A program made the translations under genes and the position numbers. Below the pieces are notes generated by a model that was not told the origin of the DNA, made no database searches, and saw only the letters and a list, made by a program, of their open reading frames with translations. From Anaerolineae bacterium (GTDB lineage Bacteria > Chloroflexota > Anaerolineae > VGOG01): a stretch of DNA of 64,000 bases. Of this stretch, positions 50,540 through 61,216 are shown piece after piece. Numbering within the stretch: position 1 is the first letter of the stretch; every line of letters begins with the position of its first letter. The stretch is from contig JBAWAP010000384.1 of the NCBI GenBank assembly GCA_049589355.1, positions 2,349-66,348 on the forward strand, written 5' to 3'.

Positions 50540-50696
50540 TATCTTCCTCCTTGAAGTATTGTTATCATTCAGTACCACATCGAATTGAGAAAGGAACTAA
50601 TTTCTTTGAAGTAGGGATTCCGCAACGTGGGAAATTATACAACTGATGCGAGCAATGGTCAAGGAAGAAGCAAGCGGACTGCTTGAACGTAACTGC

Positions 50697-51056
50697 TCAG
50701 CCTTGCGAAGGTTTGAAGGCGAATTCACCTGGAAACGTGCCTGGTGAGCAAAACTGCGTACACCTGCAAGCATGTTTGCAACCTTCGCAAGGCTTGGCTG
50801 AGCAGTCACGCTTGAACAGCAACAAAAAAGGGCCAGCACAACTGAAGTGCTGGTTCTTTTGCACCTTCCACCTTGAGAGACTGGCGGTCAATGGCTGAAG
50901 CTGGCGCCTGATTCTTTTCAACTCACCAGCATCAAGCCAAATGCCAGCACACGCAGCACACTCGCCAGATTCCTCCGCAACCACCCTGGCATACATCAAC
51001 AACCACATCGTCTACCACCATCTCCGTCAGTCGAGTATCACAGGCCGGGCATTTCA
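50697..51056 (-). pseudogene. Frameshifted TFIIB-type zinc-ribbon protein gene
   Basis: MKCPACDTRLTEMVVDDVVVDVCQGGCGGIW in one frame and ...CAGIWLDAGELKRIRRQ in the next; a ~28-nt near-duplication separates them. Confidence 0.35.
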
Positions 51057-52223: not shown

Positions 52224-52559
52224 GTCACTCCCTCCTTTCCGTATGTGCGCTGTTTGTCGCCCTACATGACAGCTCTTTGGGATTTCCCGTGGTGAGACCT
52301 AATTTGAAGAACGATCAAGCCTCCTAAACCTAGCGCCGCCCAACGCCCGGCATCACCCGCTCGGCGCGACAGTCGAGAAAAGACACACCGGAGACCGATA
52401 GCCTGCTGGCTTTGGGCGCCCGTTGGTAAGGCGCGGAGCGCCGAGTCGGGTGCAAGTCGTGGTTGGGCGGCCTTTTGGGTCTTGTGTGGGAATTACACGG
52501 TTTCCTTCCTGCTGTTCATCACCACCCAGCCGAGCACGGCGAGGCGAAGCAAGGGTTCT

Positions 52560-56057: not shown

Positions 56058-56165
56058 CGCCCAACGATCAAGCTGAGCCACGCCGGGCCGAGGACTCGGG
56101 ACAACCCGCGACTTCTCGGCAAACTGAAGACGCCAACCGGCGTTGGCTCCAGCGATTTTGTTAGG
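56058..56165 (-). repeat. attC site (cassette 4, distal end of array)
   Basis: Minus-strand GCCTAAC overlapping the ORF stop ... GTTGGGC; internal complementary arms. Confidence 0.6.
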
Positions 56166-56631
56166 CGTCATGTGTCGGAACAAGCTCATGGACGAACTCC
56201 TCTGGTGAAGATGGTGACACGACCACGGTGCGTCCTGTGTATCGCAAAACCACAGTTCGGCGCAGGTCAGTAACAAAGGCTCGGTAAACGCCCAAAAGCT
56301 TGCTCCAGTAAAACCCTGTAATAGAAAAGAATCCGCCGTTGCCACAACGGATGCTCCAACGCATCACTCGCGGCTGAAACTGCGCAGACTGCAAGCCGGC
56401 AAGTGGCAGCCGCGTTGCCCAGAACAAACGATGAATCAAGATGGCATCGGGAGTGACCGTGTATCCACGAATGGTGAAGAGCGCGCAACCGAGAATCAAT
56501 GCCAGCAACAGCAGTCCGAACAACGTGTGGCTCTGCATAAATGCTTCATATGCGATGCCCAGGCACAAGACCGTGAGCAGTGATGATACAACGATGAGCG
56601 GAATACCCCAGTGTGCTTTGTAGTGTTTCAT
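56161..56631 (-). CDS. PH-domain (bPH_2/YdbS-like) membrane protein, integron cassette 4
   Basis: Two N-terminal TM helices then bacterial PH domain. Confidence 0.55.
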   Translation of the reverse strand: MKHYKAHWGIPLIVVSSLLTVLCLGIAYEAFMQSHTLFGLLLLALILGCALFTIRGYTVTPDAILIHRLFWATRLPLAGLQSAQFQPRVMRWSIRCGNGGFFSITGFYWSKLLGVYRAFVTDLRRTVVLRYTGRTVVVSPSSPEEFVHELVPTHDA

Positions 56632-56653
56632 AATTGTGTGGTGTGTTGAATGA

Positions 56654-56752
56654 CGCCTAACGGCCTCGAGCTGAGCCGCCCGGCCAGCCAAGGCTAGTAT
56701 CGCGCGAGAGCCAAGACCTGGCTGGCCGGGTCGGCTCCAGCGAGTTGTTAGG
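56654..56752 (-). repeat. attC site (cassette 3)
   Basis: GCCTAAC-...CTCGAGCTGAGCC/GGCTCCAGCGAG, GCCGCCCGGCCAGCC/GGCTGGCCGGGTCGGC paired arms...-GTTAGGC; 99 bp. Confidence 0.7.
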
Positions 56753-56800
56753 CAGACTTCTGCCCATGATCATGGTCCCCGACTTAAAATAATCCCCGCC

Positions 56801-57982
56801 CTAATCGGGAGAGTCAATTTGATTTCGAATTGCTTCAGCAGTTAAGAAAGCGGCGTTCCATCCACCGAGGCTGGTTTCGCGCAACTCTGACGCGATGCTT
56901 GTCTTATCCAATCCATGGGTCATGAGATTCTTTGTCAGACCAAATCCAATCCTACGACCGGGGTCTGCGAATCCCAATGATCCTCCTGCGCCTGTATGAC
57001 CAAATTCATTACCCGATGTACCCATAGGTATGATCCCACCCCGGCTGACGTCACCTCCAAGAAAATAGCCAAGTGCCTTACGAACCCTATAACCAAGCAC
57101 CTCATCGCGAGCATCGGTCTGTAGGGTTCGAATTACATCGACCTGCTCGGATGAGAGGATTCGAACTCCGTCAAGCTCTCCGTGGGACGCCAACATCGCG
57201 AAGTGACGGGCAATAGCGCGCGCATTCATAATGCCCCCCGCTGCGGGAATTGAGGCTCGGCGCACGTCGGGCCGATTGAGGACCTCAACGTTGGACACAT
57301 GGGCTGGTATCGCCCTTGAAAGGAGTTCGGTCGGCTCAGATGTCACCCCCTCGGGTAGCGGTTCTCGAGAAAGCGGTGCAATGCGGGTTTCAACATCATC
57401 AGGAATGCCTAGGTAGAAGTCTTCAATACCCAAAGGATGACAGAGTTCTTCTTGAGCAAACTGCGCAATAGATCGGCCATCGATCCGGCGAATTAGCTCA
57501 CCCACAATCCAACCGAAAGTGAAAGCGTGATATCCCGTCTTAGTACCAGGTGCCCATAATGGCTCAAGCTTAGCTATGGCTGTACACATGGCCCCCCAGT
57601 CGGTCATCATCTCAGGTGTCACACCTTTCGGCATTTGTGGTATGCCTGCCGTATGAGTCAGTACATGGCGAACTGTGATCGCATCTTTTCCATTCGCGGA
57701 GAATCCAGGCCAATAGATCGCAATTGGCTGGTCGTAGTCGATAGATCCACGATCAGCCAAAATATGAAGACAGGTTGAGGCAAAACCTTTGGTAACTGAC
57801 CAGGAGGTGAAGAGTGTATTCCCGTCAATAGGCTGTCCGGTAGTTACGTCAGCAATCCCAGACCAAGCATCTACAACGAGTTCACCGTTTATGTACGCTG
57901 CTACTTGCAAACCAAGCTCTTTACCTGTGGTGACCAAATCAATAAGAATACCCTGCACTTGTTCATTCAAATCGTTCTGCAT
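56801..57982 (-). CDS. Beta-lactamase-fold serine hydrolase (class C/EstB-like), integron cassette 3
   Basis: SWSVTKGF S-x-x-K motif. Confidence 0.8.
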   Translation of the reverse strand: MQNDLNEQVQGILIDLVTTGKELGLQVAAYINGELVVDAWSGIADVTTGQPIDGNTLFTSWSVTKGFASTCLHILADRGSIDYDQPIAIYWPGFSANGKDAITVRHVLTHTAGIPQMPKGVTPEMMTDWGAMCTAIAKLEPLWAPGTKTGYHAFTFGWIVGELIRRIDGRSIAQFAQEELCHPLGIEDFYLGIPDDVETRIAPLSREPLPEGVTSEPTELLSRAIPAHVSNVEVLNRPDVRRASIPAAGGIMNARAIARHFAMLASHGELDGVRILSSEQVDVIRTLQTDARDEVLGYRVRKALGYFLGGDVSRGGIIPMGTSGNEFGHTGAGGSLGFADPGRRIGFGLTKNLMTHGLDKTSIASELRETSLGGWNAAFLTAEAIRNQIDSPD

Positions 57983-58010
57983 AGCTGGACTGCTTCTTTC
58001 GTTTCAGTCT

Positions 58011-58165
58011 GCCTAACGGCGCGGACGCGCAGCGTCCGCGCTAACGGAATGGCTCAGCGGCAGCGGCGGGACAGGCAAGACGCCTTCTCGATTATCGCGT
58101 ATTTCTGGCAAAACGCGCCTGCACGCGAGCGGCGCAGCCGCTGTCCGCTGGAGCCGGTGTTGGGT
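58011..58165 (-). repeat. attC site (cassette 2), ~155 bp
   Basis: Minus-strand ACCCAAC ... GTTAGGC located 29 nt upstream of the serine-hydrolase ATG; internal perfect 10-bp inverted repeat GCGCGGACGC/GCGTCCGCGC. Confidence 0.55.
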
Positions 58166-58190
58166 GCGCATTTGGTTATTGAATACTGAC

Positions 58191-59192
58191 CTATGAGTTG
58201 GTTTCAGCATCTTCATCTTCCTTGTCCACAATTCCCATACGCTCAGTTCGAGCCAAAGCTTTTCGGATTTCAACGTATTTCTGTGTGTCACCTTTTGCGC
58301 TTGCCAAAAGCAGAGTCATCATGGGGTTGCCCGACTTCTCTATTTCCTCAGCGTGCTTTAGAACAAATTTGTCAAGTTCTTTATGCCAGCCTAGTTCTTG
58401 GAGTGCGCGAATCTGCCACCATAAATCGCCTTCATCAGCAGATTGTCTAAGGGCAAGAATAAACAGCTCATCCAAGAGACCTTCTTCTACAAACTCTTTC
58501 AAGTAGAAAGCGGCTGAAAAATACCGGTTATCTTGAAGCGACTTGTTAATGCCGAGAATATAATCCGATATAGCTTCGCGAGTCTTGCCTAGACCCTTAT
58601 AGAACCGCGCTCGTTGAAGCCAGTCCTTGTCTTGGGTGTATCTCATTACTTCACGTTCAATAACTTCGGCTGGTATAAGGTCGGGCTTGCCTTGCATACT
58701 TCTCAGGAAGCAGATTGTTTGGTCGTGGGGGTCTTGTTTAATTGCTAATTCAATATATTTATCCCGCAACTCGATATTGCCAATAGAATGATAGTGCATT
58801 GCCAATAATTCGTATTCTTGATTCTCTCGATAGATTTCTGCGACTGTAGTTACCAATTCGACATTATAACTATCGTCGCCTTCAAGGACCTCATATTTTT
58901 TATAGTTTGCACGTTGTTGTGCTACAAGTCGAAGCCAATCATCGCGATAGAGGATGACTTGGTCTGCGTCAAGCTTCCTATCAAAGCCGCCACTAATTTG
59001 TGTTTCACGATGACAGTCAAAGCATAGGACAGCAAGATTTTTTAGGTCGTAGTTGCTTGGTTCTTCGTCGATGTGATGTATCTGAACGGGCTTGCCACGA
59101 ACACGGCAGACACAGCATACGCGGTCCGAGAGAAACAAGACACGCGCCGCAATATCATCGGGTATTGGTTCTTTTATCTTCTTCTTCGCCAT
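58191..59192 (-). CDS. HNH-nuclease-motif protein fused to alpha-helical repeat domain, integron cassette 2
   Basis: CCVCRVRGKPVQIHHIDEEPSNYDLKNLAVLCFDCH (C-x2-C...HH...N...C-x2-C-H). Confidence 0.5.
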   Translation of the reverse strand: MAKKKIKEPIPDDIAARVLFLSDRVCCVCRVRGKPVQIHHIDEEPSNYDLKNLAVLCFDCHRETQISGGFDRKLDADQVILYRDDWLRLVAQQRANYKKYEVLEGDDSYNVELVTTVAEIYRENQEYELLAMHYHSIGNIELRDKYIELAIKQDPHDQTICFLRSMQGKPDLIPAEVIEREVMRYTQDKDWLQRARFYKGLGKTREAISDYILGINKSLQDNRYFSAAFYLKEFVEEGLLDELFILALRQSADEGDLWWQIRALQELGWHKELDKFVLKHAEEIEKSGNPMMTLLLASAKGDTQKYVEIRKALARTERMGIVDKEDEDAETNS

Positions 59193-59248
59193 ATGCAAAA
59201 GCTCAAATCGTTACAAATGGAAGCGCCCGACTGCGGCGAGGAACGCCT

Positions 59249-59323
59249 GCCTACCAAAACGTAACACAGACGAAGAACGTTTGAAAAAAGCCGCGTGAGG
59301 GCGTCGGCTGCACGCAATGTTAG
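59249..59323 (-). repeat. attC site (cassette 1)
   Basis: GCCTAACATTGCGTGCAGCCGACGCC... closely resembles class-1 style attC left end; right boundary degenerate (GGTAGGC) and may extend to ~59215. Confidence 0.5.
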
Positions 59324-59354
59324 GCGCGGCACTGATGCGTAAAGATTTCCCGAT

Positions 59355-60938
59355 CTAGTAAAAGATATCTTCAAACAACGGCGCAAAAACGTCCTCGTCC
59401 ACCTCAATACCAGCAGGGACCGCTAATGGCAGTTTGTCAGAATCATAGAACCCAACCCTCTCTTTCTTCAAGAGTCGAAAATTGGGGTCACTTAAGACGT
59501 GATCAGTGTGAGTGCATGAGGGTAACCAACCTTTCACATTTGCTTCGTATGAGAGCAACCACTGTGAATCATACAGGTTGGCTTCATCCATATAAGTTTC
59601 CCAGAGGGTTGTGTCTAGACCGGATGGTATCAGCCCTCGCTCATTAGCGTCTAACGTGAGCAGCGCCACTATAGAATCATGCATCCTTGACAACGCGGCG
59701 GCAGCGGCGGGATCAATTGTAATCCCGAAGAAGATTGCGGCCCAAACAGACCAGGCAGCTTCGCCCCCATAATTCGAGGCGCACTGATGTACGATTTCAC
59801 TATTTAGTACCTCGCCAACTGAAGCAACATCAATATCGAAGCCTAATTGATGATATTGAATCAACAACTCCAGGACTTGGAAAAATGTTCCAGTCTCAAC
59901 CATTAGGCATTGAAACAGGAAATGTTGAAGCAACGGCCAGTTGGCGCGGTCAATTGCCTCACTCTTATCTTCTCTAGGAGAAAGCCGTGCGACAGCGTAC
60001 TCGAGGACGTGGTCCTTGGAATGTTCGCGTGCGAGTTCAAAAGCCAGATCGAAATAGGTCATCAGGTCAGTGGCTTGTGCTTTAGGGGTGCTTCGGAATC
60101 GGAATGTTCGCAACTGGGGAACCCATCTGGCCACAATGCGAATCGGCAACTCGATTATCTCTGTCTTATCCGAGTTTAGTTCGAGCTCATATTCCCGCAG
60201 TACTGCGCGAAGCGTAGATAGGGCAGACTCGGCTTCTGATCGCGATCGAAACCCAAACTCAAATTCGTCCACAAATCGAAAGCCCCTGATCTTTCCGAGT
60301 TGTTTTTCCAGTTCCTCGTCGGTTGCATTAAGGATTATCTCGGCTATCAAAAACGATGTATCGGGGCCAATCGGTATGCCTATGGTCTGATCATCCTGCC
60401 CGCGCCTGATCCACCGATCTAGCGAGTTGCCGATATGCTGATTACCACGATTGACCTTTGCAAAGTCTTTACCGTGAATTGCCCACGGAATGCTATGTGT
60501 ATAAACCGACGGGTAGAATTTTGAGATATCGGCCTTGAGGATGAACTTTGAGGTAGATCTAGCCTGCAATCGCATCGCAGGTAAATCATCGTAAGTCACT
60601 ATTGGTACAATAGCACGACTTGTAGGTTGCCCAATGGTGGGCTTGCTACAAGAGATTCTTGAACGGTTCGCAGCGCTGCTTAACTGAGGCCAGTTATTTA
60701 CCACATCACAGCAAAGGTTGTGTTGAACTATTGGGTTGGGGATCGATAAAAACCTGCGATTAATGCCTACGCGCGCGAAACTATGGCGCACAGGCTTTGC
60801 CCGTTTGGGGTCGTTGAAGGTGTTTGGAAGATGTCCAGCATTTGCGGCCATTACTTGTGCGAATCGCTCAGTCGAGAACGGCGCTGGGAGTTTAGCAGGG
60901 AAGAAACCGCGAGATAATAGCAATGATAAGTCGGTCAT
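59355..60938 (-). CDS. Reverse transcriptase, Abi/DRT (unknown-group) type, integron cassette 1
   Basis: RT motifs ILKADISKFYPSV (motif 2), IGIPIGPDTSFLIAEIIL (motif 4), FRFVDEFEF at the YxDD position; 130-aa N-terminal and ~230-aa C-terminal extensions. Confidence 0.65.
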   Translation of the reverse strand: MTDLSLLLSRGFFPAKLPAPFSTERFAQVMAANAGHLPNTFNDPKRAKPVRHSFARVGINRRFLSIPNPIVQHNLCCDVVNNWPQLSSAANRSRISCSKPTIGQPTSRAIVPIVTYDDLPAMRLQARSTSKFILKADISKFYPSVYTHSIPWAIHGKDFAKVNRGNQHIGNSLDRWIRRGQDDQTIGIPIGPDTSFLIAEIILNATDEELEKQLGKIRGFRFVDEFEFGFRSRSEAESALSTLRAVLREYELELNSDKTEIIELPIRIVARWVPQLRTFRFRSTPKAQATDLMTYFDLAFELAREHSKDHVLEYAVARLSPREDKSEAIDRANWPLLQHFLFQCLMVETGTFFQVLELLIQYHQLGFDIDVASVGEVLNSEIVHQCASNYGGEAAWSVWAAIFFGITIDPAAAAALSRMHDSIVALLTLDANERGLIPSGLDTTLWETYMDEANLYDSQWLLSYEANVKGWLPSCTHTDHVLSDPNFRLLKKERVGFYDSDKLPLAVPAGIEVDEDVFAPLFEDIFY

Positions 60939-60992
60939 GTCATTTGATAGGTGAATCTACCTCCAAGTCTAATGCTCAATCAATCTTCAGTT

Positions 60993-61085
60993 TCGATTTG
61001 AAGCGCCTAACTATTGAGTATACGGAATCCATCTTTCCTTGCCATTTAAGCGTCTTAGACGGAATCAACCTAATCTGCTAGCAAG
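60993..61085. other. attI region with GTTAGGC crossover core (minus-strand reading) at 60993-60999
   Basis: GTTAGGC 55 nt upstream of the RT start, between the first cassette and intI. Confidence 0.5.
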
Positions 61086-61114
61086 GTTGCATTTGCGGGA
61101 ATTGTGTGTATAAT
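61086..61114 (+). promoter_or_regulatory. Candidate P_intI promoter (TTGCAT-16-TATAAT)
   Basis: ttgcatttgcgggaattgtgtgtataat ~100 nt upstream of intI ATG. Confidence 0.45.
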
Positions 61115-61216
61115 AACCCTGTTCCCAGCCCTTCTGCGGAATGTGCCAGATGGCCGGGTAGATGCATTATAAAGCGCAATCCAGAAAAAGTCAACCTGTA
61201 CCGGAGGAAAACCGCG

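Follow-up and report, generated by a model that had tools for sequence, protein, structure and literature searches.

Results

Gene content of the locus

We analysed a stretch of 64,000 nucleotides (nt), hereafter the window, from an Anaerolineae bacterium of the phylum Chloroflexota (assembly GCA_049589355.1, contig JBAWAP010000384.1, positions 2,349 to 66,348 of the forward strand), in which a gene for a reverse transcriptase (RT)-like protein lies in first position of a cassette array headed by the integron integrase gene intI. An earlier reading of this DNA, made without database searches (the sequence-only reading), had described the gene as an integron cassette encoding an Abi/DRT-like defence RT with a non-canonical F-V-D-E catalytic box. 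The open reading frame (ORF) that it named is real and encodes a product of 527 amino acids (aa), and the three peptides that it quoted are all present, namely ADISKFYPSV (aa 136-145), IGIPIGPDTSF (aa 186-196) and FRFVDEFEF (aa 220-228). Its labelling of the first of these needs correction. By the standard numbering of RT motifs, the box that contains the D is motif 3 (A), IGIPIGPDTS is motif 4 (B) and the catalytic box is motif 5 (C), so that ADISKFYPSV, which had been called motif 2, is motif 3/A. Residue counts across the family were taken from 263 sequences (per-column totals 259-262): D137 is unchanged in 259/259, and Y142, five residues further on, which we take to be the sugar steric gate, is kept in 255/260. 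The Pfam scan of the protein returned the generic RVT_1 domain alone (E 3.7e-11). The GC content of the RT gene and its cassette (0.47-0.50) is lower than that of the flanking chromosomal genes (0.55-0.66), as the sequence-only reading had noted.

The intI product scored 495 bits against the NCBIfam model TIGR02249 'integron integrase' (cut-off 265) and is 100% identical to the NCBI entry 'MAG: integron integrase [Anaerolineae bacterium]' (81.7-kb contig); hundreds of its relatives at 80-97% identity carry the integron integrase annotation. The mechanically called intI ORF begins at 61106, while homology and the annotated start agree on 61217. The integrase gene lies on the plus strand and the cassettes on the minus strand, a divergent layout, and a Pc-like sigma-70 promoter (11/12 consensus positions) points into the array, which may be expressed from it. 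Over intI and two glycosyltransferase genes, the window shares 96.5% identity with two sister-strain contigs, L089 and L090. Their similarity stops exactly at window position 61005, which is the G/TT (the slash marking the crossover) of GTTAGGC on the cassette strand, and their first cassette differs from that of the window. This chromosomal synteny indicates that the element is a sedentary chromosomal integron. Of the eight copies of GCCTAAC/GTTAGGC in the window, six fall within 56160-61011, in alternating orientation.

The RT protein belongs to the DRT6/UG12 family

Among the PADLOC profiles, the protein was matched by Drt6 (UG12; PDLC03748) with 561 bits (E 6e-169, aa 3-503). Two PADLOC models labelled Drt4 nearly equalled this score (541 and 516 bits), the UG30, UG14, AbiK and Abi-P2 profiles scored far lower, and the curated NCBIfam Drt4 model was not reached (238 bits versus a cut-off of 450). 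A sequence search of the PDB placed entry 9wy8 at the top (E 6e-82, aa 3-501), followed by DRT4/UG15 (8e-27) and AbiK (6e-18). An AlphaFold (AF2) model built from 112 homologues (pLDDT 93.7, pTM 0.92) shows an RT palm and fingers and, C-terminal to these, a helical domain with the fold seen in DRT6. In a Foldseek search with this model, the top match was again 9wy8, 'Cryo-EM structure of the hexameric DRT6' (TM 0.88/0.94, rmsd 2.2 Å over 505 columns), with DRT4, AbiK and Abi-P2 ranked below it. These data identify the protein as a clear member of DRT6/UG12, one of the class-1 UG/Abi families. The proposed Abi/DRT-type defence RT is thereby narrowed to one family, and the C-terminal extension, whose fold the sequence-only reading had left to structure prediction while likening it to those of defence RTs, is a helical domain like that of AbiK, Abi-P2 and DRT4.

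The family comprises 1128 clusters at 50% identity (E up to 1e-30), distributed over many bacterial phyla and some archaea. Its single-gene organisation is borne out at this locus. Rfam searches of window positions 40000-64000 at E up to 1 gave no intron, msr/msd, diversity-generating retroelement (DGR) or other relevant RNA, in agreement with the earlier remark that no noncoding RNA (ncRNA) context is apparent, and its relatives have nothing but the ORF in common with the window.

The flexible C-terminal tail of the protein (aa 500-527, window 59355-59440) was compared with the homologues P0005, P0006, P0008, P0021, P0062 and P0092, and terminates in a conserved ...APLFEDxFY-COOH. In other subfamilies the last residues are PLFSF, SFSLPY, AGWAETY or GGGGGIY; an aromatic residue stands within the last three positions in 129 of 238 full-length relatives, and a Tyr in 93 of the 238. 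That this tip could be a priming residue, or a docking peptide like the acidic C-terminal tail of the single-stranded DNA (ssDNA)-binding protein SSB, is pure speculation.

The RT gene has moved as an integron cassette

The boundaries of the cassette became visible by comparison with other arrays. The metagenomic contig L096 is 99.05% identical to the window over positions 61011..59223 and unrelated to it outside this interval. There, the RT cassette comes after the attC of another cassette, which ends in ...cgcaattcGTTAGGC, and has a complete attC of its own (124 nt, L096:2198-2321, GCCTAAC...GTTAGCC), the bottom strand of which folds into an R box and a long bulged L stem (-32.4 kcal/mol, z -2.3). 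The 5' boundary falls at the G/TT crossover in both available comparisons, the homology to L089/L090 ending at 61005 and that to L096 starting at 61011. In addition, GCGCCTAAC at 59319-59327 is an exact 9/9 reverse complement of the cassette start GTTAGGCGC. Judged by these comparisons, the RT gene is a genuine integron cassette, and one that has recently moved.

The window copy differs from the L096 copy in its attC, which here is not complete: it lacks the R' box and the last part of the L' arm, and its fold is no better than chance (z -0.2 to +0.3; +0.28). The sequences GTTCTTC, GGTAGGC and GTCGGGC after the RT gene were tried as R' boxes and rejected, their folds being no better than those of shuffled sequences. 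Thermodynamic detection gave no attC for the RT cassette in the window, and the question was settled only through comparison with L096 and with L097-L099, three contigs that align to window 59231..58177, the cassette of a protein with HNH and TPR features (HNH-TPR), at 88% identity. In L097-L099, the HNH-TPR cassette starts at G/TTGGGCGC after another attC, against G/TCGGGCGC in the window. The point at which the RT cassette is joined to the HNH-TPR cassette lies within a shared T(C/T)GGGCGC (window 59223-59231; L096:2292-2321; L099:70-90). This fusion has the look of a deletion at microhomology, or of a recombination by the integrase at a secondary site, that removed the last ~30 nt of the RT attC, and it looks as if the two cassettes were thereby turned into one immobile or jointly mobile unit. 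The cassette status proposed by the sequence-only reading thus holds by virtue of the integrase, the attI junction and the L096 copy, with the qualification that the cassette's own attC is truncated here and joined to the next cassette.

The second catalytic aspartate is replaced by glutamate

We then considered the catalytic box. Position 222, the first of the box, is Y in 130 of the 263 sequences (49%), F in 50 (19%) and H in 33 (13%), with other residues in the rest. D224 is invariant (262/262). At position 225, 249 of 262 sequences have D, 10 have E and 3 have N, so that E and N together account for about 5%. One further genomic relative reads HVDN. In the alignment, the F at the start of the box is ordinary family variation and the E is a true deviation from a near-invariant D, so only the E of the supposedly non-canonical F-V-D-E is unusual. 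The catalytic Asp residues D137 and D224 (codon GAC) are present, and Glu takes the place of the second Asp in motif C (E225, codon GAA at 60264-60266). We found no literature on Y-x-D-E in RTs.

The V-D-E sequence is common to every relative of at least 69% identity (P0001-P0004, P0007), and the next relatives, at 57-61% identity, have DD. Within the V-D-E clade, synonymous differences are saturated (pS 0.63-0.90) and non-synonymous ones are few (pN 0.08-0.20), with a dN/dS of 0.04-0.06 where computable. The Glu225 codon is GAA or GAG depending on the clade member, and among the changes specific to the clade, D225E alone falls in a column where the other 115 sequences are 100% identical. Glu is also found in P0293, P0322, P0348 and P0349 (x-x-D-E), distant representatives with an identity of about 40%, which indicates that the D-to-E change is recurrent; the distant family members P0246, P0259, P0267 and L084 have independently come to carry x-x-D-N. 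We conclude that E225 is probably a selected, tolerated and recurrent variant, not a sign of decay, and that the D225E enzyme most likely retains activity, perhaps at a different rate or with a different use of metal.

Two other positions were examined and set aside. Position 12 is Tyr in 94% of the family and Phe here, but a second inactivating change (Y12F) was dismissed, given that the validated DRT6 of Sphingopyxis sp. has Phe too. Y116, which aligns to the priming Tyr125 of DRT4, was rejected as a priming residue: most family members have F, L or Q there, and the validated DRT6 has F.

Relatives outside this locus

Integron carriage is the exception in the DRT6 family. An IntI-like gene was found within 10 kb in one of 80 genomic loci of the family, and that match was weak (30% identity), so a family-wide association with integrons was discarded. 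The V-D-E members L002, L003/L004 and L085/L086 are not cassettes. They share an upstream hairpin and a TGTATAAT promoter module, and have terminators of their own. In this module (L002:9870-10000, L003:4060-4186, L085:220-347), a hairpin ACCCGTCTCG..GAGGCGGGTTT is followed by GGTGTATAAT; the neighbouring genes differ from one locus to another. The conservation of the module despite these different neighbours suggests that, outside integrons, the RT gene carries its own insulator terminator and promoter.

A DD-type relative, 57% identical (L088:3060-4800), appears to be a cassette as well: its start GTTGGGTTGC complements its own R'' flank GCAACCCAAC, although the fold of the attC-like site is not significant. 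The L088 RT gene is followed by an MNT/HepT toxin-antitoxin pair and abuts glycosyltransferase genes with no integrase between. Chromosomal synteny of the window with L088 or with L002/L003 (glycosyltransferases, DEAD helicase) was considered and rejected, as tblastx showed the RT alone to be shared.

The rest of the array

The features of the locus are collected in Table 1. The HNH-TPR protein of the second cassette (333-335 aa) has an N-terminal HNH-like zinc-finger motif and TPR-like repeats, with weak matches to the HNH and TPR profiles. Its homologues number 668, and those in Cohnella, Paenibacillus, Bacillus and Pseudomonas syringae are 52-60% identical to it. Beyond the weak HNH matches it had no hit among the defence-system profiles, and it matched no solved structure. 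Its wide horizontal spread together with its carriage in a cassette makes it a candidate uncharacterised defence gene. A role as partner or effector of the RT was rejected: it adjoins the RT in no relative, is absent beside the L096 copy and moves separately in L097-L099. The fold of its attC region was weakly better than those of shuffled sequences, with z from -1.1 to -3.0 according to the limits chosen; at the end of this region (58011-58046, minus strand), the R'-like GTTAGCG and GTTAGGC flank a perfect GC-rich hairpin, GCGCGGACGC TGC GCGTCCGCGC.

The third cassette starts with GTTAGGCAGACT, complementary to its own R'' flank AGTCTGCCTAAC, and the 5' end of the fourth cassette is likewise complementary to its own R'' flank. 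The arms TCGCTGGAGCC...GGCTCAGCT are common to the attC sites of these two cassettes but are not those of the RT cassette's attC, which suggests that the RT cassette came from another integron. The array probably ends with the attC of the fourth cassette. Beyond this apparent end lie two long imperfect palindromes, at 52338-52468 and 50679-50819. One of them, GCCCAAC...GTTGGGC (z -2.4), follows GH130 and glycosyltransferase genes; the other, an inverted repeat of 140 nt, has a Thr_leader match at chance level. Both could be stray attC-like sites or unrelated terminators.

Table 1 Features of the integron locus, in window coordinates (a slash in a sequence marks the crossover point)
Feature	Position	Strand	Basis
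intI, integron integrase, 319 aa	61217..62176	+	TIGR02249, NCBI match
Pc-like sigma-70 promoter, TTGACT-17-TATAAT, 11/12, directed into the array	61166..61194	-	consensus scan
attI crossover box GTTAGGC; cassette begins after G (G/TTAGGC)	61005..61011	-	sister-strain and L096 comparison
RT cassette: 72-nt leader, ORF and attC remnant	59231..61010	-	L096 and L097-L099 comparison
RT-like DNA polymerase gene, DRT6/UG12 family, 527 aa	59355..60938	-	profile, PDB-sequence and structure matches
Motif A ADISKFYPSV with catalytic Asp D137	60504..60533	-	alignment
Motif B IGIPIGPDTSF	60351..60383	-	G187, D193 and S195 invariant in 112-sequence alignment
Motif C FRFVDEFEF, D224 invariant, E225 in place of the usual D	60255..60281	-	alignment
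Truncated attC of RT cassette: R'' GCCTAAC (59319-59325) and L'' arm	59231..59325	-	L096 comparison
Second cassette, HNH-TPR protein (ORF 58191-59198; NCBI start 59192)	58177..59230	-	L097-L099 alignment
attC region of HNH-TPR cassette: R'' ACCCAAC, L arms GGCTCCAGCGG / CCGCTGAGCC, R' GTTAGCG, extra hairpin, second GTTAGGC	58011..58168	-	fold
Beta-lactamase-family (serine hydrolase) gene of third cassette, E 2.6e-68	56801-57982	-	Pfam
Canonical attC of third cassette, GCCTAAC...GTTAGGC, z -5.2	56655..56753	-	fold
Gene of fourth cassette, small membrane protein with bacterial PH domain (bPH_5)	56161-56631	-	domain match
Canonical attC of fourth cassette, GCCTAAC...GTTGGGC, z -3.3	56059..56166	-	fold

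Discussion

Proposed function of the RT cassette

Taken together, we consider it likely that a sedentary chromosomal integron of an Anaerolineae bacterium took up a DRT6 gene at its attI site as a promoterless cassette, that the encoded protein is an active enzyme, and that it defends its host by a mechanism of the DRT4/DRT6 type. UG12 has been named DRT6 and gives Escherichia coli moderate protection against the phages T5 and ZL-19, which is lost in the RT catalytic mutant (Mestre et al. 2022, PMC9226505). The hexameric DRT4 uses its own Tyr125 as primer for a constitutive, template-independent synthesis of random ssDNA; this product is removed by a host exonuclease, but ORF55, a DNA-binding protein of T5, protects it, with toxicity and abortive infection as the outcome (Wang et al. 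2025, PMC12783706). For DRT6, ORF55 of T5 likewise triggers toxicity, and the system is toxic in sbcB-knockout cells (PMC12783706). Hexamer formation, protein-linked template-independent synthesis and phage protection are all known for the Sphingopyxis DRT6 (PMC12783706, PMC9226505), and the structure of a DRT6 hexamer is published (PDB 9wy8).

The mechanism that we propose is assigned because of this homology to DRT4 and DRT6. As the first cassette of the array, the RT gene would most likely be transcribed from the Pc-like promoter beside intI. By analogy, its product would form a hexamer that uses one of its own residues as primer for template-independent ssDNA synthesis. In the uninfected cell, a host 3'-5' exonuclease would clear this ssDNA; upon infection, an ssDNA-binding protein of the phage would shield it, and the accumulating product would kill or arrest the cell in an abortive infection.

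Alternative explanations

Two alternatives concern what kind of element the gene is. It could be a retron, group II intron or DGR enzyme using an RNA template, and the generic RT palm does give some likeness to these: the protein scored 49.7 bits against the group II RT/maturase profile and 27.4 bits against that of the retron St85. Both scores lie far under the respective cut-offs of 300 and 235 bits, and the best profiles are of other families. The group II, DGR and retron RTs match the AF2 model on the palm alone (TM ~0.35), the Rfam scan returned none of the RNAs that such an enzyme would use, and genomic relatives have the ORF alone in common with the window, with no flanking RNA-coding DNA shared. 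We therefore regard an RNA-templated enzyme of this kind as scarcely tenable, in accordance with the sequence-only reading, which had set the protein apart from retron and group II RTs. It is also very improbable that the gene is an ordinary chromosomal or defence-island gene that merely adjoins an integrase. Such a gene would go with the lack of a canonical R' box or significant hairpin after the RT gene in the window, with the free-standing state of the other V-D-E clade members, which have their own terminators and promoter module, and with the rarity of IntI-like genes near the genomic relatives. It is at odds with the 5' boundary, which two independent comparisons place exactly at the attI G/TT, with the presence of the same cassette between two attC sites and with a complete attC of its own in L096, with the 9/9 complementarity of its R'' flank and 5' end, and with a 3' junction that is the start of another cassette, itself mobile.

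A further alternative accepts the cassette and questions the enzyme. The D225E clade might consist of catalytically dead or strongly attenuated DRT6 proteins, kept as a scaffold, a decoy or a low-cost 'stored' cassette. Near-universal Asp at position 225 would fit this view, as would the need of DRT4 and DRT6 defence for the catalytic motif and the in-frame stop at codon 416 in one clade member, L002 (L002:10001-11587, P0007), where homology continues beyond the stop and the gene is probably a pseudogene or affected by a sequencing error. Against it, strong purifying selection acts on the entire protein (D137, D224, the aromatic residue of motif A and motif B included) across a clade in which synonymous sites are saturated; Glu retains the carboxylate; and the repeated appearance of E or N at position 225 in distant lineages fits tolerated catalysis better than repeated loss. 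Viral RNA polymerases of the GDN type, in which GDN replaces GDD, are active as well. A dead enzyme is in our view unlikely, and we return to an active DRT6 carried as a cassette as the preferred explanation. Several observations nevertheless weigh on that explanation besides the L002 stop. The Pc-like promoter is a consensus match only; with its attC truncated, the window copy is probably frozen in first position and not independently mobile; published catalytic mutants are of the DD-to-AA type only; and a Tyr at the position equivalent to Tyr125 of DRT4 (Y116) is not conserved in the DRT6 family.

We also put forward, as a conjecture that we would not expect to prove right, that the D-to-E and D-to-N changes in motif C tune the enzyme. 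A slower constitutive ssDNA synthesis or a changed metal preference might lower its self-toxicity enough for the constitutively expressed first position of an integron. In a related possibility, the conserved acidic and aromatic C-terminal tip (...PLFEDIFY-COOH) might recruit a host exonuclease as the SSB tail does, or supply the priming Tyr.

Implications

These results would widen integron-borne phage defence to a large RT-type system and to Chloroflexota, beyond the Vibrio and clinical-plasmid models. They also present one defence gene in three states: free-standing with a promoter, as an intact mobile cassette, and as a cassette frozen by truncation of its attC. Moreover, Glu or Asn in place of the second Asp in ~5% of DRT6-family proteins, under purifying selection, provides natural variants for studying the role of this residue in template-independent, protein-primed polymerases. 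The current picture of how DRT6 and integrons work is unchanged by these findings.

Comparison with known systems

That integrons act as stores of defence systems is established (Darracq et al. 2025; Kieffer et al. 2025). The defence cassettes described there resemble the RT cassette in carrying a promoterless defence gene whose expression depends on its position. The two studies emphasise small systems, mostly from Vibrio and clinical plasmids, whereas the one reported here is a 1.78-kb cassette in Chloroflexota; the accessible text of both studies mentions no RT or DRT cassette. The existence of non-integron homologues with their own promoters, together with the rarity of integron carriage, fits the recruitment of systems from defence islands into integrons, as put forward by Kieffer et al. 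2025.

Among the RTs themselves, AbiK and Abi-P2 (PDB 7r06-7r08) share the superfamily fold with the protein (TM 0.55-0.73) and are protein-primed, template-independent DNA polymerases, but they are only 14-19% identical to it. AbiK occurs mostly on plasmids, and Abi-P2 members are often encoded by plasmids or predicted to come from viruses (Mestre et al. 2022, PMC9226505). DRT4 (UG15; PDB 9vdo/9vdv/21ou) is, like the RT here, a class-1 UG/Abi protein with an RT domain and a helical C-terminal domain, and its hexamer with protein-primed, template-independent ssDNA synthesis serves as the mechanistic model for our protein. The two differ in sequence (21% identity, TM ~0.76), the score against the curated Drt4 model stays below its cut-off, as given above, and the priming Tyr125 of DRT4 is not conserved in the DRT6 family.

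The closest known system is the DRT6 of Sphingopyxis sp. (9wy8), which has the same domain order over aa 3-501 at 33% identity (TM 0.88/0.94). Both are single genes without an ncRNA; motifs A and B are conserved between them, as is the first Asp of motif C; both have Phe at query position 12, and the Sphingopyxis protein has no Tyr at the position of Tyr125 in DRT4. Its catalytic box reads FRYVDDFYF, compared with FRFVDEFEF here. Unlike the Sphingopyxis DRT6, the RT described here is an integron cassette in Anaerolineae and carries the conserved C-terminal tip ...APLFEDIFY.

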